Source of the DNA: Candidatus Minusculum obligatum
Lineage (GTDB): Bacteria > Patescibacteriota > Minisyncoccia > Phycocordibacterales > Phycocordibacteraceae
Direction of reading: 5' to 3'
Assembly (NCBI GenBank): GCA_045401155.1
Contig: CP174360.1
Span: 233,403-297,402 of the forward strand
Length of the DNA: 64,000 nt
The notes under the pieces were generated by a model. It was not told the DNA's origin. It searched no databases and worked only from the letters and a program-made list of their open reading frames with translations. This document shows, piece by piece, positions 15,657-61,635 of this stretch. Positions within the stretch are counted from its first letter, which is position 1. Every line of letters starts with the position of its first letter. Position numbers and translations under genes: made by a program.

Positions 15657-18600
15657 GTGTCTGCCGATTCAGAAAAATTTATTCCAACAAAGGAAGCTGC
15701 GTCTCTAGTCGGGCGTACTTCTGATTACGTTGGTCGACTTGCTCGAGAAGGGAAAATACCTGCGAGTCGGATTGGTCGATCTTGGGTTGTGAGTAAAAGA
15801 GCACTTCTGGAATATTTTGATGTTCAAGAGTCTGTAAAAGAAATTAAAAAAGAAAAACTTTCTCAAACAAGAAAAGAAGAATACAAGGAGGTCCAGAGGC
15901 CAAAAGCTAACGTTGGAAAAAGCTTAACAATTTTTGTTCAGAAGCTGCCAGTTGAAAATCTTGTTTCTTTTGCAGTTGCGGTCCTTGTTGTGTTTGGAAG
16001 TTTTTCTCTAGTGCATGCTTCTGGTTTAGCAAAGCTTCCAAAAGTTGCTCTTGATGTGATTCATGAAAAGGTTGTCTCTTTGAATCGAGGAATTGCAAGT
16101 GCAACAAACGGTCCTCGTCCAACATATGTAGGGAACTACGTAGTTGAAAAAGAAAACTTTGAAGTAGAGGGGTTTGAGATGAACAATATTTTTGCATCAG
16201 CCCTCGAAGGGTTTGAGAGTGTTGGAGAAGGTTTTGAATATCAAGGATTTTCAAAAAAGAATGACTACGTAGTTGAAGGTGATGATGGTCTGTCTCTCGT
16301 TGCTGTTTGGAATAATTACGTTGCACTAGGAGAAGGGATCGTGGAGACCTCTCATGTTTTGTCTCAAGCATATGTAGATCTTGTGCACGCGTTAGGTAAG
16401 GGGACTCTGCAGAACGCACTTGCCGCGAGAGATCTCTCACGAGCACTACATAGAAACACATTTGTTGCATATGAGTCTGGCGTGAACACTTACGTGAGTT
16501 CTCTTCAGGTAGCTCCAGATGCGTATACGGGTGCTGTATACGCTTTCGTAGATGAGAGTTATAAGATTACTAATGCTTTCGCTAAGGCTCCACTTCAGGT
16601 TGGTAATGCGATTCTTTCTTCGTCTCAGTCTATTCCTGAAGGGAACCAAAAGATCGGTTCTGGATTGCGTATAATAATGCCGGCTTTAGGTGAGGCTATT
16701 ATTAGCAGCCATGAACGTCTTGTGTATGGTTTTGTCGAGTCTTCATACGCTGTTGTAGATGCGTATAAGGATTCAATTATGCGTGCTGGTGACCATGTTG
16801 GAGGAGCGTATGCTTTTGCTCGTTTTGATTTGCCACCTAAGGTCGGCAAGGGTCTCGCAAATGCCTTTATGGCAACTACAGATGTTGTAGACGAGAGTGT
16901 AGAGCGCGCAGGAGAATATCTAGCGCAAGCATACATTGTACCAGCCGTTACAGTTACTTTGTCTGGGATTGAGGGTGTTCAGCATGATGTAGAGGGCTTC
17001 TCTAAAAATCTTGCGTCCGGGACTATTGCTAAAAAGAGTCTTTTTGAAGATGTTGCAGAGTCTGCACAGGCAAATGTTGTGGATGGTGTTCAGAACTTCT
17101 TTGCTCGAATCTTTGGGCGCGGAGAAGATCCTGTGCTTCTTGTAAACCCAGGGCCAGCTCAGACGAATGTTGTTATTAAAGAAGATGAGCCTGCGGTAAT
17201 CACTCCTGGAAACGTTGTTCAGAACTTCTTTGCAACAACAGATGTAAGTAAGAGCTACGTAGATGCCGGTATTACTTCATTGCATGCTGCGCTTTCTGCA
17301 GAAATACAAAAGCTTACTTCATTGAACCGCAACCAGATTATTCAGAACATTCAAACTACACATGTTCTTAATCGAATTGAAGATCTTACAGATACAATTC
17401 TTCGTACACCTGAAATTATCGGAGGAACACTCGATGATGTAGACATTCGAGGAAATTCTAATTTCTCAGGAAACACAGTCTCAGGAAATGAGTTTATTGG
17501 TGGTACCGCAAGCTTTGGAACAACAACTGTTTCTGAGATTAACGTAACAAATAACATTACAGCAGGAGGAGTACTTTCTGTTGCAGGTCTTACATCAAAC
17601 GGAGTTCTAACAGGACCGTACTTTACTGCAACAAGTACCACTGCAACTTCTACATTTGCTGGAAGTATAGCGGTTGATACAGACGGGTTCGTGTATGCAA
17701 CAAGCACTCGAAATGTTGGTATTGGAGTACTCTCTCCAAGTGCGCTTCTTTCGCTTCAAAACTCTACAAGTACACAGCCAATTGCGACGTTTGCAAATGA
17801 TTCTGGTTCTGAGTTATTCCGGTTTACAAATACTGGATATTTAGGAATTGGAACAACAAGTCCATATGAAGCGCTTTCAGTAGATGGAAATGGTGTGTTT
17901 ACAGGAACACTTACAGCAGGAGCAACGACGCTTTCGGGGGCGTTGGTTGGTACAACGGCAGAATTTACTTCTGGAACTACCACAAATGCTACAAGTACTA
18001 ACTTCTTTGCAACAAATGGGCGGTTTACCAATCTGATTGGCACAAATGCCACTATTACTGCAGCTACAACCACAAACTTCTACGCATCTATTTTTGACGC
18101 CGCGACAGCTGCACTCACAAATCTTGTAGCCACAAACGCCACAAGTACTAACTTTGCAGTTAGCTCTCTTGCACAAGGTTCAGTTCCATTTATTGGAACA
18201 GGGGGACGGTTAATTGATGATAATGCCAACTTCTATTGGGATGATACAAATAACCGTCTTGGCATTGGAACAAGTTCTCCGTATGCGAAGCTTTCTGTAG
18301 TAGGACAAACAGTGTCTGAATACTTTACAGCAACAAGCACCTCGCTTGTATCTACATTTCCGCTTGCGAGTTTTACATCTGCAACATCAACACAGCTTGC
18401 AGTAAATTCTCTGACATCAGGACGCCTGCCGTATGTCACTACAGGAGGTCGGTTGATCGATGATGCAGACCTTACATTCGACGGCACAACGCTTACGGGG
18501 ACAGATTTGATCTTCACTCGAGCAACCACCACAAATGCAACAAGTACCAACTTATCTGTGTCAGGAACCTTTAATGCGGTGACAGGAGGAGCTCAAGCTG

Positions 18601-21600
18601 CTGGAATTACAGTAAATGCAGATGGGTATGTAGGTATTAATAATACGAGTCCATTATCCCCACTTGATGTGACTGTTTCTGCGGCAAAGCCAGCTGTATT
18701 CAGAGGAACAACTGAGCCACGTGTTCGATTTGTTGCAAATGGAAGCAATGTCGGACTTCTAAATGGATATGTTGGAGATTCTTTCCGTGTGTACTCTTCA
18801 AGTGGGCTGCCGCTTCACATAGGAGCAAATGAGAGCACGCAGCTCCGCTTTACCACAACAGAGATTAATGTAAGTGATGATCTTATTCCTACTGCAAATG
18901 CAACATATGATCTTGGTTCTCCATCATTTTATTGGGACGATGCATACCTAGATTCTTTGACGGTAAATAACCTTTCAGCTGCATCTACATCTATTGCAGG
19001 TACAAATAATGCTTCATTCTCAATTAACTCAGACAACGCAACATCAGATGGTGAAGATGCATCACTTGTGTTTTATCGAGGCGTGGTGGTGCCAAATGCA
19101 GTGATTACGTGGGATGCAAGCGAAGATCATTTTGATTTCAACCAGAATATATTTATTCAAAATGATAATGGAGGAATTGCAACATCAACACTTGCGATTC
19201 GTGCGGCAAGTGGGCAGACAGGAAATCTATTTACAGTGCAGGATGTAAATGGTCTTGAGCTTGCAAACTTTGGGGTAAATGGATACTTGGGACTTGGGAG
19301 CTCAAGTCCATCAGTGCGCCTTACAGTTGGTACAGGCACCCCAAGTTCAATCGCTTCAGGTAATTACTATAATAGTGCGTATGTAAGTGGGGATCTTGAA
19401 GTGGATGGAACTATTTACGGAACGGTAAGTGGGGCAGTGACACCTGCTGGATTTACAGAAGGTTCGGTGGTGTTTGCGGGATCTGGAGGGACACTAACGC
19501 AAGATAATAGTAATTTTTACTGGGATGACTCAAATAATAGACTTGGAATCGGAACCTCAAGTCCGCGTAGAGCACTTCATATTGCAGAGAACAATCCATC
19601 ATTCCTCCTTGAAGATGTTTCTGGAGCTTCTGCAGGACAAAAGGTTTTGCGATTTAACTATACAGGGGGAACGGTAGATTCAGAGAGTAATTTTGCAGTA
19701 CAGTCTGCAACTGATATTGGGGGATTTTCTGAAAATCTTTTCCAGATTTTCAGAAACGGACAGGTAAGTATTAATGGAGACGCAACCCCAGAGTTTACGC
19801 TTGAGGTTTCAGGCAATGAAGGAAGTGCTGGATATTTTGGACTGTCTTCAAATACCTCAAGCGCTGGAAACATATTTATTGTTGATGGTTCAGGAAATGT
19901 TGGAATTGGTACAACTACCCCGGGGGCACGACTTCATTCTCTAAGTACAGGTACACAGCTTAGACTTGGATACGATTTTGATACGTATGCTGATTTTCAG
20001 GTTGGGTCAGGTGGCGTAACCACATTTAGTGGCGCTGGTCTTGAGTTGGATAATACAGCTGGTAATAGAATTAAACTTTCGCAAGATGGTGCAAGCGGAT
20101 GGTCAAATGAGCTTGCACTTACAGATGGATCTCAGGAATGGTGGATTCGTACAATCGCAGGACGCTTTAGTGTTCGTGATCAAACAGGCGGATCAAATGG
20201 AGTGTTTGATATTGAGGCAGGAGCTCCTGCTGAATCACAAAGTATCCAGTCAGACGGAGATGTCATCTTTGGTGTAGGAAATGTAGGAATTGGAACCACT
20301 TCTCCATATGCAAAGCTTTCAGTAGTCGGGCAAGCAGTTGCTGAGTACTTCACTGCAACAAGCACGTCGCTTGTTTCTACGTTCCCTCAGGCAAGCTTTA
20401 CATCAGCAACATCAACAAACTTCTATACCAGCACCTTTGGTATTAATAGTGAATACATTTCAGATCTTACAGGAAATGGTCTTTCAATCTCAGGCGGGCA
20501 GCTAAACGTTGCAACGAGCTCGCTTTCTGCAACCTCTGGATTCTTTTTGCAAAATGGAAATAGTTTTGGAGAAACTGCAGTTCTTGGAACAAATGATAGT
20601 AATAGTCTGGCATTTGAGACAGGAGGGTCTACAAGAGTAACTATTGATACAAGTGGAAACGTGGGAATCGGTGATACAAGCCCTGATGCTCAACTTGATA
20701 TTGTGGATACATCAACAACAGGAGCAGGTCTTATTGTTCAGAAAGATCTTGCAGCATCACGCTACACTACGAATGTTGAATCACAGTTCTCAATTCGAGG
20801 AAATACAGATGATACGGAGCGGTTGTTAATTGGGTACGCCACTGATGAAAATTATGGATATATAGAAGCTGTAGATTTCGGGAGCACCTTTAACAGGGAT
20901 TTGGTGCTTAATAGTCAGGGTGGAAACGTAGGAATTGGAACTACAACTCCTAATGTTCCACTTGAGGTACTTCGTTCAGGTGCTGCTGGGTATACATGGA
21001 CTCCAAATGCTCGTACCGCAGCACTATTCCAAAATAGTAGCGCTTCAGGTTCTGCTATTGGAATTATTGGAAAATCAACAGGATCAAGTTTTATCTGGTT
21101 TGGAGACGAGGCTTCAGAGACAATTGGACAGATTGGATTTAATCACACAAGTAATACCTTCTCTATTGAAACAGCGGGAGGGGCTGGAGACTTGTTCATC
21201 AACTCTAGTGGAAACGTAGGTATTGGAACCACAACAATAAACGCAAGCTTGACTGCGAGTGTTGCCTCAACAGGAGATGTGCTTTCTCTTGTGCGAAATG
21301 ACAACGGAAATAGGTGGGCGCTAGATCTTGGAGGAAATAATCTTAATTTCAAGTTTAATGGTGGAAATGATATTGTCACTATTAATAATGGTGCCCCAGC
21401 TGCTTCTCTTTATGTAGGGACTACAGGTGTGGGAATCGGTACAACAAGTCCATTAAGTAAGCTACATGTTGCTGGGCAAGTTACTATTGATGGCACAAAC
21501 TATTCTCGAGTAGAGTACGCGCGCAATGGTACAGATGTATGGACTGCTGGACTGCACGAAAGTGATGATTTTGAATTTTTCCGAACAAGTGGTTCGGGGA

Positions 21601-24600
21601 ATATTATTCTCCGAGCGGGCAACTTGAGTGTTGGTACAACAAGCCCAGCTGGGAAGTTGCATGTAGAGGGGTCCGGAACACAAAATGTTTTGGTTAAAGG
21701 TATTGGCAGTTCAGATCAGACAATACAATTTGGTCGTTCAGATCTTGCAACAAACTGGGTTGTTGGGCGTGATAATACAAGTAGCCGTTTTGGTATTGAG
21801 TACTTTTCTGAAGTTGGAGCAAGTCAGCTTACCGATAATTCCGTGTTCACCATTCTTCAGGGTGGAAACGTAGGTATTGGAACCACAACACCAGCACACC
21901 TCCTTGATGTAGATGGAGACTTCCGAGTAGGAGAGGCAGGAAGTTCAGACGCCTTCTTTGTAGATGCAACAAATGCATACATTGGAGTTGGTACTACAGC
22001 GCCAACTTCAAATCTTCATGTTGCTGGAACTGGAAACACTTTCCTTACAGTTGAGGCTGTAAATGGAAATGCTGTGCAGTGGATTTTGAAGACTGATAGC
22101 GGTAACCGTCGTTTTGTGGCTACTGATAATTCAAATGTACAACAATCTCAAATTCACTTTGCAGGGCAGAGAGAAATTGATTTCATTGGGGATTCTGTAA
22201 ATGATCCACTTGGAACATTTGAGGGCGGGAAGTTTGCGGTAGGAAAGACAAGTACACCAAACTTTGGTCTCGAGATTGCAACAAGTACTACAAACGGTTG
22301 GTTTGGTATTACAGATTCAACAGCTGGAGACATCTTCATTGTTGATGGTTCAGGAAACGTAGGAATTGGTACCACTACGCCAGTTGCAAAGCTTACCGTG
22401 CTGGACACATCGGCAGGTGCAGAAACGTTTGCGTTGTTTGGCCAGAACTCATCAGGTAGTGCGGGTACTGGTACTGGAATCAGGCTCGCACCGAGTGCTT
22501 TCTCATCAGGAGCAACGGTTCGAGCATTTGATATTGTTGCGGTAAATGATGGCGCAAATACCATTGATCTTGATTTCAGAGGTTCAAGTGGAGGAAGTCC
22601 AGCATCGCGTGTGCGAATTACTGGTGCTGGAAACGTAGGTATTGGTACTACTACGCCAGACGCAAACCTTTCTATTGTTAGTTCATCAGGAAACGATGCA
22701 ATTGTAAAGATAGAAGGAATACATAATGCTGTACCAGCTATTAAAATTACAGATGTAAGTGATAGTTCAGGAGGAATTGCACAAGTGATTCTTACTGGAA
22801 GACGTTTAGATGCAAATGTATCAGGTTCATTTGCAGGTAACTTTGCAGTAGGAAAACATTACAGTGGTGGTGCTGTTACAAGTGGGCAAAGGTTGGGAAG
22901 GTTTTTGTTTGGAGGAAATCATACGGATGGAACAATTGATAATCTTCTATACTCAGCAGGGATTACTGCAGTTGCAGAAGGTACGTTTACTAATGCCACA
23001 ACCATGCCAACAGGACTTGCGTTTTATACTGGCTCTGCAGGAGTGGCGCCAGGTACACCAAATGTAGAGCCTGGTACAGAACGTCTGCGTATTGATAATA
23101 GTGGAAACGTAGGTATTGGCACTCAAGCTCCAGGACGTAAGTTTGAGGTGGTTGATGCAACACAGCCGGCAATAAATGAAGTTGGATCATTTGGGGTTGG
23201 CGCAAGTGCTACAGAACAGGTTCGTATCGGGTACGATACCGCAGGTAGTGATTATGGGTGGATTCAATCTGCTGTATTTGGCACAAGCGCGACTAGTCTC
23301 TCACTTAATCCAAGGGGTGGAAACGTAGGAATTGGTACTACAACGCCATCTACAAAACTTGTTATTGCTGGGGCAAATTACAATGGAGAGCCAACCCACA
23401 AAGCAAAAGTGTTAATTCAAAATGATAATGCTAGCCAAACATTAAATAACACGGGAGGTATCGAATTTAGGTTAAGTGGATTTGGTTCAGGGTATGGATG
23501 GCGTATTGGAGGGTGGGACCTTGCTGCGTCTGGTGGAGGTGCGCCGTATGTGTGGGAGTTCCGAGGAAACTCTGCAACATGGTCAGAGCAGATGCGCCTT
23601 ACTGCAGATGGAAAGCTTGGTATTGGAACCACGAGTCCAACAGAGAAGCTTGAGGTGTATGGAGGAAAGATTTCAGTAGATTCTGGCGGGGCAACAGACA
23701 CAGAGTATCTAGAGTTTAGTTCTAGTGGAACAACGATTGGAGGAATTGGAAGAGACACAAATGATCTTGTGCTTTCAAGTCCATTTGGTATTCGACTTAC
23801 TGAAGGAAGCACGGATGTGCTGACTGTTGCGGGTGAAAATGTGATTATTGGTGGATCAAGCTTTGCCGGGCAAAGGGTGCAGATTACTGCAGATGCTGCG
23901 GTGCCGCTTGCGCTAAATCGTACAACAGATGATGGTGTGCTTGTCGATTTCTATCAGGCAACAACTGCTGAAGGATCAATTTCTGTTTCTGGAAACACAG
24001 TATCGTACAATGCCTTTACGGGGTCTCACTACGCAACTACAAATGAAAATATTCAAAAGGGACGCCTAGTTACCTTTACAGGAAATAATGCTCGCCTGAA
24101 TGGAAATCCAAGTTCTGAAATTTTGTATGGTATTACAGAGTCTTCAGTAGAAAACTCATCAAAGGTGTTGGGGTCAATGCTTGCGCTGGAAAGTCCAAGT
24201 AAGGTTCATTCAAATACAAATCCGTACCTTGTAATGGCGGTTGGTAACGGTGAAGTGTGGGTGGTAGATGAGGGAGAGAACCTTGAGCCAGGAGATTATC
24301 TTATTTCTTCAGATACGCTTGGGCATGCAGAGAAAGATACAGGAGCATATCCAATTTCACATATTGTTGCGCGTGTAGCAGAGCCAGTAGATTGGAGTAC
24401 GATTTCTGCAACCGTGGATGGAAAGAAACATGCGCTTGTAAGTGTTACGTTTGAGCAGTTTGATAAGCCAAACGGTATTAGTGTTGATGCGCTTGGAAAC
24501 GTAGGAATTGGAACAAGTGCGCCAGAGTACAAACTGCACGTTCTTGGGGATGCTGCTGCTACAAGCTTTGTAAACATTTCAACTCGTGAACAAAAGAAAG

Positions 24601-25949
24601 GTATTGCATATCTAGATGAAGCTCGAAAGGAAGACATTCTTGAGAAGCTAAAGGAGGTACAAATTGCAGAGTATCGATACAATTATGAGGATGATAATAA
24701 CCCGCTGCGCCTAGGGCTAATTGCAGAGGAGGCGCCCACAGAAGTACTGTCAGTATCAGGTAAGGGAGTTGATATCTATAAACTTGCAACCTTTACACTT
24801 GCGTCAGTACAGGAGCTTGCAACTCGTGTTGAGTCTCTTGAGGAGCGTGTCGCGGCCCTTGAGGCGCAAGGTGTAATGTCAGGATCTGGAGGAGTATTCA
24901 GTACCTCAACACTGCAGTCTGCACTTTCAGAGCTTGGTGTATTGATTGAGAGGGGGTTTGCACAGTTTGATAAGCTTGCATTCCGTCAGTTGATTGCACA
25001 GAAGGATAATGATGGACAGGGTGCTGCAGGTACAGGAACCGTACGTCTTGGAGACAAACTTGTGCTTGTTGAAAATAAGCAAATCAAAGCAAGTTCTAAG
25101 GTGTTTGTAACCTTCACGTCTCCAGTGGTTGGAAGCTGGTTTATCACAGACAAGGCAAATGGAAGCTTCCGTGTGACCCTAGATCAGGTGCAGACAAGTG
25201 ATGTAACCTTTGATTACTTCATTGTGCAGACTGAGCGAGAGGCTGTACCTACATCAGATACAGGAGTGGTAGATACTGAGGCACCTATTATTGAAATTAT
25301 TGGAGCAAATCCATACTACATAATTACAGGTAATACATTTACTGATCCAGGAGTAAATATCACAGACAATGTAGATCAAAATCTAGAGCACGAGCTATTT
25401 GTAGATGGGTATCCAGCAGCAGAGCGGCCACTTGATACGTCTGTAGCAGGAGAGCACGTGCTGACATACAAGGTGCTTGATACAGCAGGCAACCTTACAA
25501 CTGCGACACGAGCTGTGGTGGTTGGGTCGGGAGCAGGTCTTGGATCAACCGACACAGGAACTACAACACCAGCAACTACAGGAGACACAGGAACCTCTAC
25601 ACCTCCAGTTGTAGAGGAAGAAGGGGTTGTGGTTGAGGAGGAAGCAGAAGAAGTTCCAGTAGATGAGGTGGCGCCTGTAATTACGCTTACAGGAAAGGCG
25701 GCGCTTAAGGTTGCAGTTGGAGATACGTTTGTTGATGCGGGCGCAACCGCAACAGATGATGTAGATGGAGATCTTACCGCAGGTATTGTGGTAAGCGGAT
25801 CAGTTGATACAGCTACCGCAGGGCTATATACGCTCACATACACTGTTGCTGATGCGGCAGGAAATGAGTCTTCTGTATCACGTATTGTGACCGTTGAAGC
25901 TCCTGTGGAAGAAGAAGAGGAGGAAGTTACTGAAGAGGTGGTAGAGTAA
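15657..25949 (+). CDS. Giant (3430 aa) membrane-anchored surface protein: N-terminal HTH domain, TM helix, tail-fibre-like GNVGIGTTxP repeat array, internal intramolecular-chaperone (peptidase S74-like) domain, C-terminal Ig-like (DUF5011-like) domains
   Basis: An uninterrupted 10.3-kb ORF. It has an N-terminal excisionase-type HTH (aa ~10-55) and one TM helix (aa ~101-119, 'LVSFAVAVLVVFGSFSLV'). At least 12 copies of '(D)GSGNVGIGTT(T/S)P...KL.V' are Thr/Ser/Gly/Asn-rich beta-type repeats. Near aa 2975 sits 'STREQKKGIAYLDEARKEDILEKLKEVQIAEYRYNY...LGLIAEEAPTEVLSV...GVDIYKLATFTLASVQELATRVESLEERVAALEA', which matches the tail-fibre/endosialidase C-terminal intramolecular chaperone domain. Two Ig-like modules close the protein. 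Confidence 0.85.
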   Translation: MSADSEKFIPTKEAASLVGRTSDYVGRLAREGKIPASRIGRSWVVSKRALLEYFDVQESVKEIKKEKLSQTRKEEYKEVQRPKANVGKSLTIFVQKLPVENLVSFAVAVLVVFGSFSLVHASGLAKLPKVALDVIHEKVVSLNRGIASATNGPRPTYVGNYVVEKENFEVEGFEMNNIFASALEGFESVGEGFEYQGFSKKNDYVVEGDDGLSLVAVWNNYVALGEGIVETSHVLSQAYVDLVHALGKGTLQNALAARDLSRALHRNTFVAYESGVNTYVSSLQVAPDAYTGAVYAFVDESYKITNAFAKAPLQVGNAILSSSQSIPEGNQKIGSGLRIIMPALGEAIISSHERLVYGFVESSYAVVDAYKDSIMRAGDHVGGAYAFARFDLPPKVGKGLANAFMATTDVVDESVERAGEYLAQAYIVPAVTVTLSGIEGVQHDVEGFSKNLASGTIAKKSLFEDVAESAQANVVDGVQNFFARIFGRGEDPVLLVNPGPAQTNVVIKEDEPAVITPGNVVQNFFATTDVSKSYVDAGITSLHAALSAEIQKLTSLNRNQIIQNIQTTHVLNRIEDLTDTILRTPEIIGGTLDDVDIRGNSNFSGNTVSGNEFIGGTASFGTTTVSEINVTNNITAGGVLSVAGLTSNGVLTGPYFTATSTTATSTFAGSIAVDTDGFVYATSTRNVGIGVLSPSALLSLQNSTSTQPIATFANDSGSELFRFTNTGYLGIGTTSPYEALSVDGNGVFTGTLTAGATTLSGALVGTTAEFTSGTTTNATSTNFFATNGRFTNLIGTNATITAATTTNFYASIFDAATAALTNLVATNATSTNFAVSSLAQGSVPFIGTGGRLIDDNANFYWDDTNNRLGIGTSSPYAKLSVVGQTVSEYFTATSTSLVSTFPLASFTSATSTQLAVNSLTSGRLPYVTTGGRLIDDADLTFDGTTLTGTDLIFTRATTTNATSTNLSVSGTFNAVTGGAQAAGITVNADGYVGINNTSPLSPLDVTVSAAKPAVFRGTTEPRVRFVANGSNVGLLNGYVGDSFRVYSSSGLPLHIGANESTQLRFTTTEINVSDDLIPTANATYDLGSPSFYWDDAYLDSLTVNNLSAASTSIAGTNNASFSINSDNATSDGEDASLVFYRGVVVPNAVITWDASEDHFDFNQNIFIQNDNGGIATSTLAIRAASGQTGNLFTVQDVNGLELANFGVNGYLGLGSSSPSVRLTVGTGTPSSIASGNYYNSAYVSGDLEVDGTIYGTVSGAVTPAGFTEGSVVFAGSGGTLTQDNSNFYWDDSNNRLGIGTSSPRRALHIAENNPSFLLEDVSGASAGQKVLRFNYTGGTVDSESNFAVQSATDIGGFSENLFQIFRNGQVSINGDATPEFTLEVSGNEGSAGYFGLSSNTSSAGNIFIVDGSGNVGIGTTTPGARLHSLSTGTQLRLGYDFDTYADFQVGSGGVTTFSGAGLELDNTAGNRIKLSQDGASGWSNELALTDGSQEWWIRTIAGRFSVRDQTGGSNGVFDIEAGAPAESQSIQSDGDVIFGVGNVGIGTTSPYAKLSVVGQAVAEYFTATSTSLVSTFPQASFTSATSTNFYTSTFGINSEYISDLTGNGLSISGGQLNVATSSLSATSGFFLQNGNSFGETAVLGTNDSNSLAFETGGSTRVTIDTSGNVGIGDTSPDAQLDIVDTSTTGAGLIVQKDLAASRYTTNVESQFSIRGNTDDTERLLIGYATDENYGYIEAVDFGSTFNRDLVLNSQGGNVGIGTTTPNVPLEVLRSGAAGYTWTPNARTAALFQNSSASGSAIGIIGKSTGSSFIWFGDEASETIGQIGFNHTSNTFSIETAGGAGDLFINSSGNVGIGTTTINASLTASVASTGDVLSLVRNDNGNRWALDLGGNNLNFKFNGGNDIVTINNGAPAASLYVGTTGVGIGTTSPLSKLHVAGQVTIDGTNYSRVEYARNGTDVWTAGLHESDDFEFFRTSGSGNIILRAGNLSVGTTSPAGKLHVEGSGTQNVLVKGIGSSDQTIQFGRSDLATNWVVGRDNTSSRFGIEYFSEVGASQLTDNSVFTILQGGNVGIGTTTPAHLLDVDGDFRVGEAGSSDAFFVDATNAYIGVGTTAPTSNLHVAGTGNTFLTVEAVNGNAVQWILKTDSGNRRFVATDNSNVQQSQIHFAGQREIDFIGDSVNDPLGTFEGGKFAVGKTSTPNFGLEIATSTTNGWFGITDSTAGDIFIVDGSGNVGIGTTTPVAKLTVLDTSAGAETFALFGQNSSGSAGTGTGIRLAPSAFSSGATVRAFDIVAVNDGANTIDLDFRGSSGGSPASRVRITGAGNVGIGTTTPDANLSIVSSSGNDAIVKIEGIHNAVPAIKITDVSDSSGGIAQVILTGRRLDANVSGSFAGNFAVGKHYSGGAVTSGQRLGRFLFGGNHTDGTIDNLLYSAGITAVAEGTFTNATTMPTGLAFYTGSAGVAPGTPNVEPGTERLRIDNSGNVGIGTQAPGRKFEVVDATQPAINEVGSFGVGASATEQVRIGYDTAGSDYGWIQSAVFGTSATSLSLNPRGGNVGIGTTTPSTKLVIAGANYNGEPTHKAKVLIQNDNASQTLNNTGGIEFRLSGFGSGYGWRIGGWDLAASGGGAPYVWEFRGNSATWSEQMRLTADGKLGIGTTSPTEKLEVYGGKISVDSGGATDTEYLEFSSSGTTIGGIGRDTNDLVLSSPFGIRLTEGSTDVLTVAGENVIIGGSSFAGQRVQITADAAVPLALNRTTDDGVLVDFYQATTAEGSISVSGNTVSYNAFTGSHYATTNENIQKGRLVTFTGNNARLNGNPSSEILYGITESSVENSSKVLGSMLALESPSKVHSNTNPYLVMAVGNGEVWVVDEGENLEPGDYLISSDTLGHAEKDTGAYPISHIVARVAEPVDWSTISATVDGKKHALVSVTFEQFDKPNGISVDALGNVGIGTSAPEYKLHVLGDAAATSFVNISTREQKKGIAYLDEARKEDILEKLKEVQIAEYRYNYEDDNNPLRLGLIAEEAPTEVLSVSGKGVDIYKLATFTLASVQELATRVESLEERVAALEAQGVMSGSGGVFSTSTLQSALSELGVLIERGFAQFDKLAFRQLIAQKDNDGQGAAGTGTVRLGDKLVLVENKQIKASSKVFVTFTSPVVGSWFITDKANGSFRVTLDQVQTSDVTFDYFIVQTEREAVPTSDTGVVDTEAPIIEIIGANPYYIITGNTFTDPGVNITDNVDQNLEHELFVDGYPAAERPLDTSVAGEHVLTYKVLDTAGNLTTATRAVVVGSGAGLGSTDTGTTTPATTGDTGTSTPPVVEEEGVVVEEEAEEVPVDEVAPVITLTGKAALKVAVGDTFVDAGATATDDVDGDLTAGIVVSGSVDTATAGLYTLTYTVADAAGNESSVSRIVTVEAPVEEEEEEVTEEVVE
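24570..24870 (+). other. Intramolecular chaperone auto-processing (peptidase S74-like) domain inside the giant ORF
   Basis: The Ser of 'NISTREQKK' is encoded at 24579. The stretch shows the S(D/T)R..K ... AxEYxY ... GxIAQE..xV.PEVV ... GVDYxxL ... QEL ... LE.R. pattern of tail-spike/endosialidase chaperone domains. It is preceded by 'GNVGIGTSAPEYKLHVLGDAAATSF', as in many bacterial tail-fibre-domain proteins. Confidence 0.6.
25276..25905 (+). other. Two Ig-like DUF5011-type domains at the C-terminus of the giant ORF, separated by an acidic PT/E-rich linker
   Basis: 'APIIEIIGANPYYIITGNTFTDPGVNITDNVDQNL...EHVLTYKVLDTAGNLTTATRAVVV' and 'APVITLTGKAALKVAVGDTFVDAGATATDDVDGDLT...LYTLTYTVADAAGNESSVSRIVTVEA' have the G(D/N)xFxDPG(V/A)TATD..DG.LT...YT.TY.V.D.AGN pattern typical of DUF5011 Ig-like domains. 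Confidence 0.5.
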
Positions 25950-25956
25950 TAGACAT

Positions 25957-26976
25957 ATGGCAAAGATAGCAATAAATGGATTTGGAAGAATTGGACGAGC
26001 GTTTTTTAAATTGGCGCTTGAGAGAGATGAGTTAGAGATTGTTGCAATAAATGATCTGGGAGATCCAGAGAATCTTGCATACCTCCTTAAATATGACTCT
26101 GTGTATGGAGCAAGTGGTTTAGAAGTTGATGTAGAGGAAGGGAGGTTGATTGTAAATGGGAAGGAGGTACTCCTTCTTTCTGAGAGAGATCCAGCCAAGC
26201 TTCCGTGGAAGAAGCTTGGCATTGATGTTGCTCTTGAAGCAACAGGAATATTCGCAAGTTATAAAGATGCACAAATGCATCTAAAGGCCGGTGCAAAACG
26301 TGTTGTGGTATCTGCTCCAGTTAAAGACGTGCCGCCAAGTGGTGTAAATGGAGCAACAGTTTTGATGGGGGTAAATGATGAAAAGCTTAAGACATGTGAC
26401 ATTTCATCAAATGCATCATGTACAACAAATGCAGGAAGCCCGCTTGTTGCAATTCTTGATGAAGCTATTGGAATTGAGAAGGCAATTCTAAATACTGTGC
26501 ACGGATATACAAGTACGCAAAATCTTATTGATGGCCCAAACAAAAAGATGCGTCGTGGACGAGCGGCTGCATTAAATATTGTGCCAAGCTCTACAGGTGC
26601 TGCTGTTGCAACAACACAAGCTTACACATCTCTTGAAGGGAAGTTTGATGGTGTTGCAATGCGTGTCCCTGTGCCTGCAGGCTCAATTGTAGACATCACA
26701 TTTATTGCAAAGAAAGATGTGACGGTTGAAGAGGTAAATCAGGCGCTTATTGATGCGGCGCACGAAGATAGATGGAAGGGAATCTTCACAGTCACCACAG
26801 ATCCAATTGTTTCTACAGACATTTTGGGATCTCCGTTTGCATCTATTGCAGACCTTGATATGACACGCGTGGTCGATGGAAACCTTATTAAGGTATGTGC
26901 GTGGTACGACAATGAGATGGGGTACTCACACATGCTTGTAGATCATGTGGTTAAGACAGCTGGGTATGCAAAATAA
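25957..26976 (+). CDS. gap: Glyceraldehyde-3-phosphate dehydrogenase
   Basis: 'KIAINGFGRIGR' is the NAD-binding motif, 'SNASCTTN' is the catalytic Cys motif, and the protein is collinear over 339 aa. Confidence 0.95.
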   Translation: MAKIAINGFGRIGRAFFKLALERDELEIVAINDLGDPENLAYLLKYDSVYGASGLEVDVEEGRLIVNGKEVLLLSERDPAKLPWKKLGIDVALEATGIFASYKDAQMHLKAGAKRVVVSAPVKDVPPSGVNGATVLMGVNDEKLKTCDISSNASCTTNAGSPLVAILDEAIGIEKAILNTVHGYTSTQNLIDGPNKKMRRGRAAALNIVPSSTGAAVATTQAYTSLEGKFDGVAMRVPVPAGSIVDITFIAKKDVTVEEVNQALIDAAHEDRWKGIFTVTTDPIVSTDILGSPFASIADLDMTRVVDGNLIKVCAWYDNEMGYSHMLVDHVVKTAGYAK

Positions 26977-27412
26977 AACTGTACTATTTGCAACAGACCA
27001 CGCGGGATTTGAGTTGCGTGAGTTTGTGCTTGATCATCTTCGGTCTCTTGAATACACTGTTGAGGACATGGGGCCACAAAAACTAAAGGAGGGAGATGAT
27101 TATCCTGAATATATGAATCCTCTGGCACAAAAGATCTCAGAGAATCCCGATAAGTATGTCGGCATTGTTATGGGAGGATCGGGGCAAGGGGAAGCAATGG
27201 TGTGCAATCGATATAAGAATGTGCGTGCCGCAGTGTACTATGGAGCAGATGAGGAGATCGTAAAACTCTCTCGAGAGCACAATGATGCAAACGTGCTTTC
27301 TCTTGGGGCCCGATTTCTTTCAGCAGATCAGGCACGTAAAGCTTGTGAGCTCTGGCTCTCTACAGCGTTTAGTGGAGATGATCGTCACGTGCGTAGGTTA
27401 GAAAAGTTTTAG
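26966..27412 (+). CDS. rpiB: Ribose-5-phosphate isomerase B (RpiB/LacAB family)
   Basis: 'KTVLFATDHAGFELREF' and 'GIVMGGSGQGEAMVCNRYKNVRAA' are RpiB signatures. The start is taken at ATG 26966, which overlaps the gap stop by 11 nt. Confidence 0.9.
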   Translation: MQNKTVLFATDHAGFELREFVLDHLRSLEYTVEDMGPQKLKEGDDYPEYMNPLAQKISENPDKYVGIVMGGSGQGEAMVCNRYKNVRAAVYYGADEEIVKLSREHNDANVLSLGARFLSADQARKACELWLSTAFSGDDRHVRRLEKF

Positions 27413-27413
27413 C

Positions 27414-27878
27414 ATGAAAAAAGGATTTACACTCATTGAATTGCTTGTGGTGGTTGCCATCATTGGCATGCTTTCATCTGTAGTGCTTTCTTCTTTGAAC
27501 ACTGCTCGTGCAAGTGCTCGTGATGCACGTCGTGCACAAGATGGGAAGCAGGTGGCTGCTGCACTCGAACTTTACTATAGTGCAAATAATGGATTTCCTG
27601 CCAATGGGGGGACCGGTTGTTCTACAAACTATTGTTTATCTCATATAAGCGCAGCACTTACGCCTACGTATATTCCAAACTTACCTACGGATCCTATTTA
27701 TGGAGACTCAGGAACGTATCCATATCGGTATTGTGTGACAGGGAATGCATTTGAGCTCCTTGTGTACGATGAAGGCCTATCGTCTTGGTGTCATATTAGA
27801 CATGGATCAAATGACTCTGGAAGTGGGTGTTGGATGACAAATGGAGTTCCAAATAGTGGAACTGTTTGGTGTGACTAA
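27414..27878 (+). CDS. Type IV pilin-like protein (prepilin-type N-terminal cleavage/methylation domain)
   Basis: 'MKKG|FTLIELLVVVAIIGMLSSVVLSSLNTARA' is a class III signal peptide with a conserved Glu at +5. It is about 150 aa with C-terminal Cys residues. Confidence 0.85.
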   Translation: MKKGFTLIELLVVVAIIGMLSSVVLSSLNTARASARDARRAQDGKQVAAALELYYSANNGFPANGGTGCSTNYCLSHISAALTPTYIPNLPTDPIYGDSGTYPYRYCVTGNAFELLVYDEGLSSWCHIRHGSNDSGSGCWMTNGVPNSGTVWCD

Positions 27879-27899
27879 GGGCATGCTACAATTTTCTTA

Positions 27900-28619
27900 A
27901 TGCTTGTTACTCCAGCAATACTTCCAAAAAGCTTTGCAGAATTAAGTGAAAAGATCACGCAAATACGCCCATTTGTAAAAAATGTGCAGCTTGATGTGTG
28001 TGATGGGAAGTATGTAGACACAATGACGTGGCCGTATACAGAAGCCGGTCCTTCTGTTGAGGAAATGAAAAGAAGAGGTGAGGTGTTGCCCGAGGCAGAC
28101 ACGATTCACTATGGTGTTGATCTTATGGTTTCGAACCCAGATGAGGTGATCGGTGATTTTATTGCTCTCGGTGCTACGCGAGTCATCATTCATTTCAAGA
28201 GCACTAAGGATTTTAAAAAAACGATTGATCGCATCACTCGTGACTTTGGATACGATAAAGAATTTGCACCAGATCTTCTTTCCGTTGGTATGGCGGTGCC
28301 AATTGACTTGCCACTTACAGAATTTGCACCGTACGTGCAGCATGTAGATTTCATTCAGTTTATGGGGATTGTAGATATTGGAAGACAGGGACAGGGATTT
28401 GATCCTCGTGTGGTCGCAAAGATAAAAGATTTCCATAAGCGATATCCTGACGTAACAATTCAAGTAGATGGTGGCATCTCGCTTGAAACGGCACCTGCAC
28501 TGTTGGGGGCAGGTGCAGATAGATTAGCTGTGGGTTCTGCACTATTTAAAACACCAAACATAGGTCATACTATAAAAGAGTTTGAGAAGCTCTCAGAGCA
28601 ATATGGTATTTACGAATAA
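27900..28619 (+). CDS. rpe: Ribulose-phosphate 3-epimerase family protein
   Basis: 'VQLDVCDGKYV', 'DLMVSNP', 'IHFKS' and 'IQVDGGIS' are characteristic RPE TIM-barrel motifs. Confidence 0.88.
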   Translation: MLVTPAILPKSFAELSEKITQIRPFVKNVQLDVCDGKYVDTMTWPYTEAGPSVEEMKRRGEVLPEADTIHYGVDLMVSNPDEVIGDFIALGATRVIIHFKSTKDFKKTIDRITRDFGYDKEFAPDLLSVGMAVPIDLPLTEFAPYVQHVDFIQFMGIVDIGRQGQGFDPRVVAKIKDFHKRYPDVTIQVDGGISLETAPALLGAGADRLAVGSALFKTPNIGHTIKEFEKLSEQYGIYE

Positions 28620-29070
28620 CAAAGGGTTTACACTTATTGAATTGCTTGTGGTGGTTGCCATCATCGGCATGCTTTCTTCCGTTGTTTTAAGTTCTTTAAA
28701 TCAGGCACGAGCAAATTCTCGAGATGCTCGACGTACAGGTGATATACATTCTATACGTACTGCACTTGAGCTTTTTTATAATGCTTATAACAGGTATCCA
28801 TCATCTGCAGATGGTAATTGTGTTTATAATAACAGCTTTGCTTCAGGTGGGTGTTTACAAGTGCTTGTTTCAAACGGTTTTATTCAAGCTTTGCCAGAAG
28901 ATCCTGTCGGAACACAAACGTACTACTACGATAATTGGTGTCGAGAGATCGGTTCAAATAATCAGAATTTTCGTGTATGGGCAAATGGAGAAACAGACAA
29001 CAATGGTCTTGCTGAAAATTGGTGGTATGAGGAAACAATTGGTGAGACAACGTGTTATGACCCGAGTTAA
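28603..29070 (+). CDS. Type IV pilin-like protein (prepilin-type N-terminal domain)
   Basis: 'MVFTNNKG|FTLIELLVVVAIIGMLSSVVLSSLNQARA'. The start at ATG 28603 overlaps the rpe 3' end by 17 nt. Confidence 0.8.
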   Translation: MVFTNNKGFTLIELLVVVAIIGMLSSVVLSSLNQARANSRDARRTGDIHSIRTALELFYNAYNRYPSSADGNCVYNNSFASGGCLQVLVSNGFIQALPEDPVGTQTYYYDNWCREIGSNNQNFRVWANGETDNNGLAENWWYEETIGETTCYDPS

Positions 29071-29174
29071 TCACTCTGAGCACATGCTACAATTTTTCTA
29101 ATGCGTAATAGGAGCATGGGTGCAGATAATAAATTTCTTGTACATAATTTGATGGGTACTCGCTGCTGGTAAAT

Positions 29175-30008
29175 ATGATTTCAGAAAAACAAATACAAAT
29201 TATAAAAGATAGAGCTCAAGATATTCGTGAAAGCATTATTGAGATGCTTGTTGAAGCCAAAAGTGGTCATACTGCAGGGCCACTTGGTATGGCAGATATC
29301 TTTGCTACATTCTATTTTCATATTTTAAAGCATGATCCCAAGAGGCCTGATTGGGAGGAGCGTGATCGTCTTATTCTTTCAAACGGGCACATTGTGCCAG
29401 TTCGCTATGCAACGATGGCGCACGCAGGATATTTCCCAGTAAAGGAGATCATGACGCTTCGTAAATTTGGAAGTCGTCTGCAGGGGCATCCAGAGCCAGA
29501 GCGATTGCCTGGGCTTGAAAGCACCTCAGGACCTCTTGGAAGTGGTCTCTCTCAAGCTTCCGGTATTGCGTATGCAAATAAGATGGATGGGAAGGAGAAT
29601 TATACATACTGCTTCCTTTCAGATGGGGAGCTGCAAGCAGGCAATACATGGGAGGCGGCAATGTTTGCGGGGAACAATAAACTAAATCGTTTGATTTGTG
29701 TTGTAGATCGCAACTTTATTCAAATTAATGGGAATACTCAGGATGTGATGCCGCTTGAGCCACTTGCTGATAAGTTCCGATCGTTTAATTTCCACGTTAT
29801 TGATATAGACGGTCATGATATTGAGGCAATTATTGCTGCGGTTGAAGAGGGGAAAGCTCAAGCGGATAAGCCAACAATGATTTTGGCAAAAACAATTCCA
29901 GGCAAAGGAGTTCCTGAGATTGAGGGAAATTATATTTGGCACGGGAAGCCACCAACTCCTGAGGAAGCAGAGCGATTTCTAGAAGCAATACGCGGATACT
30001 ATGATTAA
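29175..30008 (+). CDS. tkt: Transketolase, N-terminal (TPP-binding) subunit
   Basis: 'GHTAGPLGMADIFATFYFHIL', 'DRLILSNGH' and 'GSRLQGHPE' are present. The gene is split, with the C-terminal subunit encoded immediately downstream (an 8-nt overlap). Confidence 0.9.
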   Translation: MISEKQIQIIKDRAQDIRESIIEMLVEAKSGHTAGPLGMADIFATFYFHILKHDPKRPDWEERDRLILSNGHIVPVRYATMAHAGYFPVKEIMTLRKFGSRLQGHPEPERLPGLESTSGPLGSGLSQASGIAYANKMDGKENYTYCFLSDGELQAGNTWEAAMFAGNNKLNRLICVVDRNFIQINGNTQDVMPLEPLADKFRSFNFHVIDIDGHDIEAIIAAVEEGKAQADKPTMILAKTIPGKGVPEIEGNYIWHGKPPTPEEAERFLEAIRGYYD

Positions 30009-32208: not shown

Positions 32209-32772
32209 AAAGTTTTTCTTGTAGATAATGGCACAACACTTCTTGAGAAGTTACAGAAACTTATTCCAGGAGAGGAAGAGGTGGTTTGTTTTGACTCGTT
32301 TGATAGTGCTGCCGCACAAGATGCTGATCTTGTAGTGCTCTCAGGTAGTAGTATCGGACCTTTGTATGGAAATGAAGATAAGTACAAAGAAGAGATCGAG
32401 TTTATAAAAAACACAGACAAGCCCATTTTTGGTATTTGTTTTGGATGTGAACTCATCGTGCACGCATTTGGTGGTACGCTAAAAAAACTAGATGAACATG
32501 AGCATGGAGAAGTGTTGGTTTCTGTCGTAGATAATAAAGAACTTTTTTGTGGCAAGGATTCTTTTACAGCATTTGAGAATCATAGATGGGGTATAGATGT
32601 TTTGCCTGAAGGATTTAGCACTCTTGCAGAGTCTGAGCATGGTCCAGAAGTGATTGTAGACAGAAAAAGGAATATGTATGGAATTCAGTACCATCCAGAG
32701 AATCAAGTAGAAGAACATGAGGCAGATGAAGTGTTCTTACACATGTTTGAGAGTGTTGTGCGTGGAATCTAA
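32209..32772 (+). CDS. Class I glutamine amidotransferase, stand-alone (possibly GMP synthase GATase subunit-like)
   Basis: 'PIFGICFGCELIVHAFGG' is the Cys nucleophile elbow and 'GIQYHPE' is the His-x-Glu motif. The start is taken at ATG 32209 (MKVFLVDNG), because the longer ORF from 31942 overlaps the divergent kinase gene. Confidence 0.65.
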   Translation, partial: KVFLVDNGTTLLEKLQKLIPGEEEVVCFDSFDSAAAQDADLVVLSGSSIGPLYGNEDKYKEEIEFIKNTDKPIFGICFGCELIVHAFGGTLKKLDEHEHGEVLVSVVDNKELFCGKDSFTAFENHRWGIDVLPEGFSTLAESEHGPEVIVDRKRNMYGIQYHPENQVEEHEADEVFLHMFESVVRGI

Positions 32773-32808
32773 AATTGTACGGTTAGAGTGCGTGCTAGAG
32801 TAGAGGTA

Positions 32809-34802: not shown

Positions 34803-35030
34803 ATGAACAACGTTCAATTTGATGATCAGCAACAGTTTCGTACTGTGCAAAAGAAAAAGGGCTTGACCCAAATGGTTATTAATATGGGGCTCGCAAAGGA
34901 TGAGAAGGGTGCGCAGGTAGTGCTTCTTATTGTGGGGGTGGTTGCGCTTGCAGTCATGTTCTTCTTTATGTTTTCAGGAGGAGGCGCACCTGCTCCAGCT
35001 GAGCTTCCAGATCCAAATGTAGGTCTATAG
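34803..35030 (+). CDS. Small single-TM protein, pilin-associated family (paralog of 60129-60368)
   Basis: 'MNNVQFDDQQQFRTVQKKKGLTQMVINMGLAKDEKGAQVVLLIVGVVALAVMFFFMF' then a short Gly/Pro tail. It ends 4 nt before a pilin gene. The N-terminal 45 aa are about 80% identical to ORF 60129. Confidence 0.55.
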   Translation: MNNVQFDDQQQFRTVQKKKGLTQMVINMGLAKDEKGAQVVLLIVGVVALAVMFFFMFSGGGAPAPAELPDPNVGL

Positions 35031-35033
35031 ATT

Positions 35034-35534
35034 GTGAGAAAAGGATTTACACTTATTGAACTTCTTGTAGTAGTAGCCATTATTGGCATGCTTTCTTCAG
35101 TGGTACTGTCGTCACTTAATACTGCACGCGCAAATACCCGTGACGCAAGACGCTATGCTGATCTACGCCAAATAGCAAACGCCCTTGAGTTGTATTATCA
35201 AGCAAATGGTCGCTATCCGATACAGACAACGTGGAGAGGGACAACTCCCGGATGTTATGGGACAGGAAGTGATCCAAATACGTCTATTCCAGGTCTTGTA
35301 CCAACATATATACCAGTCATACCACAAGATCCTCGGTGGGTGCCAAACTCGTATTGCTATCTGTATGTTTCGTATGCTCCTTACCAAGACTATAAACTGC
35401 TTGCGTACGGCACAGTTGAGGGTGGTCAGGTACCGGTAAGTGACCCTAAGTCACGGTATGCGGGGTGCTCATCTGGTGGCGCCGCCGAAGCATCCTACGG
35501 GATTGCGTCAAGCCCAACATCAGCCTGTTGGTAG
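35034..35534 (+). CDS. Type IV pilin-like protein (prepilin-type N-terminal domain)
   Basis: GTG start. 'MRKG|FTLIELLVVVAIIGMLSSVVLSSLNTARA'. Confidence 0.85.
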   Translation: MRKGFTLIELLVVVAIIGMLSSVVLSSLNTARANTRDARRYADLRQIANALELYYQANGRYPIQTTWRGTTPGCYGTGSDPNTSIPGLVPTYIPVIPQDPRWVPNSYCYLYVSYAPYQDYKLLAYGTVEGGQVPVSDPKSRYAGCSSGGAAEASYGIASSPTSACW

Positions 35535-37836: not shown

Positions 37837-38049
37837 ATGGCAACAATTTCAGTACCATTAAGTAGTGAGCTTGAAGCGCGTCTAGATGCGCTTATTGCAG
37901 ATGGGGCAGGCTCAAACCGTGCAGATGTCATGCGTCGAGCTCTTGAGCAGTTTGCAGAAGATGAGGCTGTTCGAAAAGTTCTAGAATCAGAGCAAGAAGT
38001 AAAAGAAGGAAAAATTATTCGAGGCGACATTGATGCGCTTCTTGCATGA
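37837..38049 (+). CDS. Type II antitoxin, ribbon-helix-helix (ParD/CopG-like)
   Basis: 70 aa, 'ISVPLSSELEARLDALIADGAGSNRADVMRRALEQF' is an RHH fold. It overlaps the downstream toxin gene in an ATGA arrangement. Confidence 0.7.
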   Translation: MATISVPLSSELEARLDALIADGAGSNRADVMRRALEQFAEDEAVRKVLESEQEVKEGKIIRGDIDALLA

Positions 38050-38309
38050 TTGAAGCAAGTGTAACGCCACGGTTTCTTAAAAGCTTTAAGAAACTACATC
38101 CTGACCTTAAGGATGAGGTTAGGATTGCGATAAAGGAGTTTTCAGACCCCAGTCTTCACGAGAAACGAAAGGTGCATAAGCTTAAGGGTCGTATGGAGGG
38201 GTACTATAGCTTTTCTGTTAATTACAAGTATCGAGTTGTTTTCTCTTGGGAAAAGAAGAATACTTCAGTGATTTTAAGAATGGTTGGCGATCATTCAATC
38301 TATAATTAG
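38046..38309 (+). CDS. Type II toxin, RelE/ParE superfamily
   Basis: 87 aa. 'FLKSFKKL...KLKGRMEGYYSFSVNYKYRVVFSWEKKNTSVILRMVGDHSIY' matches the ParE/RelE core (L.G....Y..R.G.YR..Y.......V.I..I.HR..Y). Confidence 0.75.
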   Translation: MIEASVTPRFLKSFKKLHPDLKDEVRIAIKEFSDPSLHEKRKVHKLKGRMEGYYSFSVNYKYRVVFSWEKKNTSVILRMVGDHSIYN

Positions 38310-61624: not shown

Positions 61625-61635
61625 AGGAGGAGAAC

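Follow-up and report, generated by a model that had tools for sequence, protein, structure and literature searches.

Two small genes lie directly upstream of type IV prepilin genes

We analysed 64,000 nucleotides (nt) of Candidatus Minusculum obligatum (contig CP174360.1, positions 233,403 to 297,402 of the forward strand) and refer to this whole stretch as the window. It contains two related small open reading frames (ORFs), here called copy 1 and copy 2. Each encodes a protein with a single predicted membrane helix, and each lies directly upstream of a same-strand, major-type type IV prepilin gene. An earlier note on this DNA had pointed out both small ORFs, had described them as abutting pilin start codons, and had given the order at copy 2 as pilin, small transmembrane protein, pilin. 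The ORF list, together with matches of the neighbouring genes to the prepilin models PF07963 and TIGR02532, bears out all three points.

34803–35030, + strand: small membrane protein gene, copy 1 (ATG start, 75 residues, TAG stop; ORF list)
35034–35534, + strand: type IV prepilin downstream of copy 1 (166 residues, GTG start, leader M-R-K-G followed by FTLIELL)
59608–60117, + strand: type IV prepilin upstream of copy 2 (169 residues; PF07963 E = 1.2e-7)
60129–60368, + strand: small membrane protein gene, copy 2 (ATG start, 79 residues, TAA stop; ORF list)
60368–60823, + strand: type IV prepilin downstream of copy 2 (151 residues, ATG start; PF07963 E = 1.2e-7, TIGR02532)

The prepilin behind copy 1 matches PF07963 (E = 1.4e-7) and TIGR02532, and also TIGR01710 (GspG) at 7e-14, the last being under the TIGR01710 cutoff. 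A 2-hydroxyacid dehydrogenase gene ends 6 nt before copy 1, whose own TAG stop, ending at 35030, is separated from the pilin GTG at 35034 by 3 nt. The TAA of copy 2 ends at 60368 and overlaps the following pilin ATG by 1 nt (TAATG), a gap of -1 nt. Judged from this spacing, translational coupling of small ORF and pilin is plausible.

The two copies are paralogues with 66% identity over 71 residues (reciprocal tblastn over the whole window; E = 1.9e-18 and 9.3e-24). The tblastn search found no third copy in the window, the next best matches having E > 0.7. The N-termini of the two proteins had been called near-identical. They are related, but the wording was slightly generous: 39 of the first 48 aligned residues are the same (~80%). 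Over the same 48 codons, 104 of 144 bases match, and at third positions 23 of 48. Since the third positions have diverged while the protein has stayed similar, we regard this as an old duplication kept by selection on the protein and not as a recent copy. The NCBI entry 'hypothetical protein ACJKSS_01550' from Patescibacteria group bacterium UBA2103 has exactly the sequence of the copy 1 protein (100% identity).

The window encodes five prepilins in total, starting at 27414, 28582, 35034, 59608, and 60368. Their N-terminal ~30 residues are identical. Over the first 120 nt of the mature pilins (from 27423, 28624, 35043, 59617, and 60377), third codon positions are 40–58% identical, and the identity of the N-termini indicates strong purifying selection. 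Recent gene conversion, or a recombination cassette, was considered as the source of the identical pilin N-termini and of the similar 5' ends of the small genes, and is rejected, as identity at third codon positions is only ~45–55%.

The small proteins form a previously undescribed family

A HMMER profile search over 1.84 billion cluster representatives returned 781 representatives at the threshold of E ≤ 1e-3, of which 33 reached E ≤ 1e-10. Copy 2 is itself one of these representatives (P0011). Every one of the best 150 of the 781 matches is between 38 and 144 residues long. A word-indexed search, by comparison, recovered only nine close relatives. A family hidden Markov model (HMM) built from 123 members finds copy 1 at E = 4.5e-30 and copy 2 at E = 9.6e-29. 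The small ORFs are real protein-coding genes under purifying selection: the ratio of nonsynonymous to synonymous substitution rates (dN/dS) among twelve close homologues has a pairwise median of 0.2, with dS saturated, and ranges from 0.04 to 0.29 between copy 1 and its orthologues.

The proteins had been described in the earlier note as belonging to no recognised annotated family. This holds up, as no family match was found in Pfam-A (both copies and 123 aligned members), in NCBIfam, in PHROGs, or in a PDB sequence profile search. Scattered weak Pfam matches are driven by the membrane helix, for example DUF3098 in 5 of 123 members at E 1e-3 or weaker. The source databases label every named member 'hypothetical protein'. 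In the parts of the literature on Candidate Phyla Radiation (CPR) protein families and on Paceibacteria pilin clusters that full-text searches and term look-ups brought up, no such protein is described.

The lineages named in record titles are Parcubacteria, Paceibacteria/Paceibacterota, Kaiserbacteria, Wolfebacteria, Taylorbacteria, and Patescibacteria group. A number of third-party assemblies with members carry the source label Saccharibacteria, which we repeat only as given. Locus L044 (CAVTUM010000020.1, 5414–6628) holds two small-then-pilin pairs on a 65%-GC contig with the source label 'uncultured Alphaproteobacteria'. Either this label or bin is wrong, or the family extends beyond Patescibacteria. 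These small bitopic membrane proteins make up a family that had not been described before. Nearly all members seen so far come from Parcubacteria/Paceibacteria-type Patescibacteria. The protein family is new, and the system to which it is attached, the type IV pilin locus, is of a known kind.

Conservation lies in the cytoplasmic head and the membrane helix

We define the family by a length of 55–110 residues, an N-terminal motif M-x-[DN]-[VI]-[QSE]-F-[DEN]-[ED], and the motif G-[LIF]-A-K-[DN]-x-x-x-A-[QN] right before a single membrane helix. Both window copies carry every element of this signature. In copy 1 the parts are arranged as follows.

34803–34829, + strand: N-terminal motif MNNVQFDDQ, residues 1–9; predicted unstructured (AlphaFold2 predicted local distance difference test, pLDDT, of 62 for residues 1–10)
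34863–34901, + strand: LTQMVINM-GLAKD, residues 21–33; predicted short helix, then the turn motif G-[LIF]-A-K-[DN] (AlphaFold2, column counts)
34902–34976, + strand: juxtamembrane E-K-G-A-Q and the single predicted transmembrane helix, residues 34–58 (AlphaFold2 pLDDT 87–96)
34977–35027, + strand: variable, proline-rich, putatively external tail, residues 59–75 (family tail statistics)

Among 144 anchored sequences, the N-terminal motif has F in 144, V or I in 142, and E or D at +2 in 133. A variable linker of 10–25 residues follows, basic at its end. The core motif then reads [LIF]-[TS]-x-[LM]-[VI]-I-[KR]-x-G-[LIF]-A-K-[DN]-x-x-x-A-[QN]-x-[VI]-[LM]-L, with hardly any variation at G, A, K, D, and the second A. 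In copy 1 numbering, A37 is invariant, G29 and A31 almost so, and Q/N38 conserved. The hydrophobic helix spans ~23 residues. The tail beyond it comprises 0–44 residues (median 19) with 16% proline, and it is reduced to five residues or fewer in 29 of 171 members. Its last five positions have no dominant residue, with proline at ~15% at each.

Within sub-families the C-terminus carries recognisable motifs, such as L-P-E-G-Q-F-I-P-E, [IL]-P-A-E-[FY], and G-L-P-P-Q. Examples are found in the window at 60342–60365 and in P0009, P0081, P0017, P0019, P0022, P0027, and P0095. The tail may thus carry lineage-specific short external motifs, though these are not conserved family-wide.

The density of lysine and arginine is 0.134 before the membrane helix and 0.065 after it, and this excess indicates an N-in, C-out topology. 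With a 123-sequence alignment, AlphaFold2 gave a model with a mean pLDDT of 81, rising to ~90 or higher for residues 21–50. The model contains a helix at 21–28, a turn at G-L-A-K-D, and a helix at 34–58, with residues 1–20 and the tail unstructured. An alignment of ten sequences returned the same elements at lower confidence. The conserved N-terminal ~40 residues are therefore predicted to be cytoplasmic, with the short helix and the G-L-A-K-D turn packed onto the start of the membrane helix. The functional part is presumably this cytoplasmic head together with the membrane helix, and the external tail is dispensable. Conservation at this place argues against an extracellular chaperone, a pilus anchor, or a pseudopilin-like partner; the earlier note had suggested a chaperone, an anchor, or a minor pseudopilin-like partner. 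A chaperone or anchor is unlikely outside the cell, given a tail that is variable and in some members almost missing, and a pseudopilin-like partner does not agree with the lack of a G/FxxxE signal.

A further reading is that the small protein is a degenerate or unconventional pilin-type subunit, a very short pilin or pseudopilin processed after the conserved Gly/Ser/Gln-Ala-Gln and incorporated in the filament or priming it, loosely comparable to Flp or to the Geobacter PilA-N/PilA-C pair. The long leader-like N-terminus, the hydrophobic helix, and the short tail would suit such a subunit, as would the position beside pilin genes. There is also a superficial likeness between K-K-G-L-T-x-M-V-I and the prepilin sequence K-K-G-F-T-L-I-E-L. 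However, neither copy nor any of the 123 members matches the prepilin and pseudopilin models PF07963 and TIGR02532 (E up to 0.01–1), and no other pilin model matches either. For the Flp/Tad pilin PF04964 there is no Pfam match; V-V-L-L-I, without E-Y, follows the conserved G/S/Q-A-Q. A comparison by hhalign with 48 pilin N-termini gave probabilities of 3–6%, over generic hydrophobic stretches only. Neither candidate processing site (G20, G36) is followed by Glu at +5, and Gly occupies -1 of the second site in only 63 of 136 sequences. The globular alpha-beta domain of pilins (~100+ residues) is absent, with 0–44 proline-rich residues, predicted disordered, after the helix. Moreover, the most conserved part of the protein would be the discarded leader. 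As for the Geobacter split pilin, there too a gene for a membrane-helix protein of very small size adjoins the gene for a larger partner, and both are linked to type IV pilin biology. Geobacter PilA-N, however, is a true prepilin with a G/FxxxE signal, whereas the small protein is without one and the gene downstream of it already encodes a complete pilin of ~160 residues. We regard a pilin-type subunit as very improbable.

A prepilin follows most family genes

The earlier note had proposed a profile search with a test for co-occurrence with pilin genes. For this, each species was represented by a single genome, in which loci were sampled with a degenerate DNA pattern that encodes I-x-x-G-L-A-K-D-x-x-x-A-[QN]-x-[VI]-[LM]; metagenome contigs were sampled with a slightly looser pattern. 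All loci were then scanned with HMMs, and adjacency was scored as a prepilin motif within 250 nt downstream on the same strand. Of the 48 loci from the genome scan, the HMM confirmed 39 as true members; the remaining 9 were chance matches in unrelated phyla, about as many as expected. The metagenome scan gave 120 loci, 58 of them with family genes.

Among family genes with sequence available downstream, a prepilin lies behind 44 of the 58 from genome-derived loci (the two window copies included) and behind 36 of the 57 distinct genes from metagenome loci. With the two samples combined and duplicates removed, a prepilin follows 77 of 111 family genes (69%). In a few further cases the pilin lies directly upstream or is convergent. 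Other prepilin motifs make up ~5% of genes in the same genome loci, corresponding to a binomial P of ~2e-26, which is nominal and ignores shared ancestry. The co-occurrence test is thus positive. Counted from the stop codon of the small gene to the start of the pilin, the median distance is 3 nt in each of the two samples, and most pairs fall between -11 and +13 nt. Gaps of no more than 11 nt account for 39 of the 44 in the genome-derived sample, and several pairs overlap. On five further contigs, every close homologue has a prepilin after it, and two of these contigs carry a tandem small-pilin-small-pilin array. Such arrays occur in at least seven loci (L001, L005, L009, L013, L024, L044, L055). 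The small gene and the pilin are inherited and duplicated as a pair, and this pairing is not obligatory.

The pilins downstream of small genes are of the major type, with a median mature length of 162 residues, and are indistinguishable from nearby pilins without a small gene. In one marine TARA contig (L004, 3962–4465) the pilin after the small gene is frameshifted, with the N-terminal helix and the globular part in different frames. This is either a pseudogene or an assembly error.

The pair recurs in many genomic contexts

Family genes were found behind 26 families of nearest non-pilin upstream neighbours, and the small-then-pilin pair stands behind 18 of these 26, including 2-hydroxyacid dehydrogenase, aldolase, glycosyltransferase, RpiB, Rpe, topA, and pgk. 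The prepilin is the only neighbour that recurs across contexts. Beside many single-case contexts, the following arrangements were seen, (-) marking genes on the opposite strand.

Context A: PfkB(-), aldolase, 2-hydroxyacid dehydrogenase, small, pilin, ribosomal protein L25 (window copy 1)
Context B: sugar transferase(-), glycosyltransferase, small, pilin, FtsW(-)
Context C: dnaE(-), pilin, small, pilin, RNase HII (window copy 2)
Context D: GAPDH, RpiB, small, pilin, Rpe, small, pilin, transketolase
Context E: topA, small, pilin
L071, 1165–11295, - strand orientation: pilB, pilC, (minor pilins, opposite strand), tpiA, pgk, small, pilin

The L071 pair lies 6 kb from pilB-pilC, and the minor pilins adjoining pilBC have no small gene. 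No pilM or pilN was found in the fetched loci, and pilB-pilC was found in L071 only.

The window has its own version of context D at 25957–30008, where the order is GAPDH, RpiB, pilin, Rpe, pilin, transketolase. Its two prepilins abut or overlap the metabolic genes, with no small genes.

27414–27878: type IV prepilin of context D, no small ORF in front
28582–29070: type IV prepilin of context D, no small ORF in front

In the relative L060, both corresponding pilins are preceded by a family small gene. The window pilin at 59608–60117 is 71–77% identical in its globular part to the pilins L037 5642–6145 and L055 7264–7773 (- strand). In these two related genomes the pilin stands in the aldolase / 2-hydroxyacid dehydrogenase context, behind the small gene that most resembles copy 2. 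This resemblance across contexts indicates that small-gene and pilin cassettes have been reshuffled between loci.

Two family genes in direct tandem (63–64 and 99 residues) were seen after gyrB at L069 9304–9800 and L129 258–758, and no pilin is near them. The pair model does not account for this arrangement.

A possible role without a tie to pili

We favour the reading that the small protein is a lineage-specific accessory in a pilus-related role, acting at the inner membrane face, and give it a probability of about 0.45, its function being inferred. Several observations weigh against it. The small gene is kept without a pilin in context A (L031, L043, L056), in nine loci of context B, and in context C (L014, L051, L127, L154, L177); overall ~30% of family genes have no adjacent pilin. 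Conversely, three of the five window prepilins have no small ORF in front of them, and many pilins elsewhere lack the small gene as well, so the protein is not needed in cis and is not specific to one pilin subtype. No type IV pilus machinery genes were found in the window. Many of the sampled loci are orthologous, so the binomial P overstates their independence, and in very compact genomes, where short intergenic gaps are usual, small gaps prove little. The earlier note's phrase 'dedicated pilin-associated accessory' therefore stands only in part: the association with pilin genes holds, but the protein is not dedicated to its neighbour.

These points bear on the main alternative, a general small membrane or envelope housekeeping protein of Paceibacteria with no tie to pili, whose adjacency would stem from compact genomes, old syntenies, and co-duplication. 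Family genes that stand alone are intact and conserved, and the commonest context is an envelope cluster, glycosyltransferase-FtsW/RodA (24 of 111 genes), in which 9 of 24 are without a pilin. The tandem genes after gyrB in L069 and L129 would also be in keeping with such a protein, as would the window pilins that stand directly behind RpiB and Rpe without a small gene. On the other hand, no neighbour other than the prepilin recurs across contexts, and the pair is found behind 18 different upstream families. Nearly always the small gene comes first and the pilin second, on the same strand and at the short spacing given above, and the pair has been duplicated as a unit in at least seven loci, against a pilin background of only ~5% in the same loci. 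We therefore consider a general membrane protein somewhat doubtful.

The junction between small gene and pilin

The close spacing raises another possibility, namely a cis-acting upstream ORF whose translation or membrane insertion controls initiation at the pilin, either in the manner of MifM, SecM, and VemP or by termination and reinitiation, the peptide itself being secondary. Those leader peptides combine a conserved C-terminal arrest motif with an mRNA hairpin that hides the downstream ribosome-binding site. Like them, the family consists of small ORFs directly upstream of a candidate regulated gene with close or overlapping translation signals, and MifM is likewise membrane-targeted. A stop-to-start distance of -11 to +13 nt in most pairs would fit such control. 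So would the absence of an obvious Shine-Dalgarno sequence before the pilin ATG at copy 2 (inspection by eye) and the proline content of the tail.

In contrast to these leader peptides, the C-terminus of the family is its least conserved part. Conservation falls on the N-terminal 40 residues and the membrane helix and not near the stop codon, the last five positions are unconserved, and the nearly tailless members number 29 of 171. No conserved C-terminal arrest sequence was found, and no stable stem-loop at the junctions: the RNA folds of 34975–35070 and 60310–60405 have z = 0.09 and 0.80 against dinucleotide shuffles, that is, no extra stability. The small gene also persists without a downstream pilin. 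Lastly, 781 clusters, a dN/dS of 0.2, and a confidently predicted fold argue for a functional protein. Control by a cis-acting ORF is, in our estimate, quite improbable.

In-frame read-through was also considered and rejected. Copy 1 and its pilin share a frame (TAG-ATT between them), but copy 2 and most homologues are in other frames relative to their pilins, so the shared frame at copy 1 is treated as coincidence. Promoter and terminator scans near the small genes gave nothing above shuffled expectation. The sole good promoter-like site (10/12) lies upstream of the aldolase gene at 32747–32775, as would be expected of a multigene operon. In an Rfam scan, the window yielded one tRNA and no match overlapping the small ORFs.

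Comparison with known systems

To our knowledge, no component class such as the adaptor proposed below has been described in type IV filament systems. The closest likeness is to PilN (PF05137) and to GspL/GspM of the type II secretion system, which share with the family a bitopic N-in topology, a motif at the extreme N-terminus, a basic stretch, one membrane helix, and a pilus gene neighbourhood. The N-terminal motif of PilN docks on the actin-like PilM. In contrast to PilN, however, the family has no match to PF05137 (window proteins and 123 members), no INLLP motif, and no periplasmic domain, and its genes adjoin pilin genes, not pilM or pilO. According to Méheust et al. 2019 (PMC6744442), genuine PilM, PilN, and PilO families are widespread in CPR. 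The small protein is therefore not simply their replacement.

The Pseudomonas accessories TfpO/PilO, TfpW, TfpX, TfpY, and TfpZ resemble the family in being lineage-restricted, co-transcribed with the major pilin, and variable in presence from locus to locus. They are encoded downstream of pilA and are larger, and those characterised are multi-pass glycosyltransferases or act on the periplasmic side. The family, in contrast, lies upstream of the pilin, has one membrane helix, and is conserved on the cytoplasmic side; no sequence relationship was detected. For readout within the membrane by a helix there is precedent without homology. PilS, a six-helix histidine kinase, recognises the hydrophobic N-terminal helix of pilin within the membrane. 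MgrB, SafA, and AcrZ are single-helix proteins of 30–80 residues that regulate larger membrane machines; they are enterobacterial and not linked to pili.

A working model for a pilus-related accessory

In the pilus-related role that we favour, the small protein and the pilin would be made from one transcript, probably with coupled translation. The protein would act at the cytoplasmic face and inner leaflet of the membrane, where its conserved part is predicted to sit. The same site holds the prepilin leader, pilin Phe1–Glu5, the active site of the prepilin peptidase, and the cytoplasmic domains of PilC, PilM, and PilB. Its target would be either the pool of (pre)pilin in the membrane or the machinery that assembles the pilus. 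In the mechanism that we favour, the membrane helix would pair with pilin alpha-1N, and the conserved Gln/Asn at helix position 2, at the cytoplasmic boundary, would face pilin Glu5. The free acidic-aromatic N-terminal motif would dock on PilM, PilC, PilB, or the prepilin peptidase. As an outcome, pilin subunits would be held, delivered, or metered, and their processing, storage, or hand-over controlled.

The protein would probably act in trans and not as a strict 1:1 partner of the adjacent pilin, because the window pilins share their N-terminal helix, the small gene outlasts neighbouring pilins, and pilins without a small gene are common. To the adaptor mechanism taken specifically, with the membrane helix on the pilin helix and the N-terminal motif on the machinery, we give a low probability. 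It is similarly improbable that the protein is an unrecognised, lineage-specific core component of the Paceibacteria type IV pilus, a tail-anchor-like adaptor made together with the major pilin.

Other small ORFs and a giant ORF in the window

Another unannotated pair of small membrane proteins may be encoded by two neighbouring ORFs (61430–61824; 64 and 62 residues) that directly follow the RNase HII gene and apparently have two membrane helices each. At 37837–38309, ORFs of 70 and 87 residues overlap by 4 nt. By synteny with L002, whose equivalents match PF01402 (ribbon-helix-helix) and PF05015 (HigB-like toxin), these look like a toxin-antitoxin pair. A 3430-residue ORF at 15657–25949 shares a helix-turn-helix-like N-terminal motif (...T.DYVG.LAR.GK...GR.W.(V/I)S..A...) with the preceding 258-residue ORF at 14216–14992. 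The larger of the two may encode a giant surface or cell-interaction protein.

Implications

Type IV pili are thought to be central to host attachment and DNA uptake in the ultrasmall, host-dependent Patescibacteria (PMC6744442, PMC9763046). So far, the pilus genes of these bacteria have been listed only through their homology to genes of model organisms. A conserved, cytoplasm-facing protein encoded before most Parcubacteria/Paceibacteria major-pilin genes would be a new part of the machinery or of its regulation. The family also illustrates how small ORFs escape family databases, as its 781 clusters have no accession; the signature M-x-D-V-Q-F-x-E ... G-L-A-K-D-E-K-x-A-Q could become an annotation model. 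The 75-residue protein and its pilin form a concrete pair for interaction studies. If the family should turn out to be unrelated to pili, it would still be a widespread and well-defined membrane protein family in genomes with few genes to spare.

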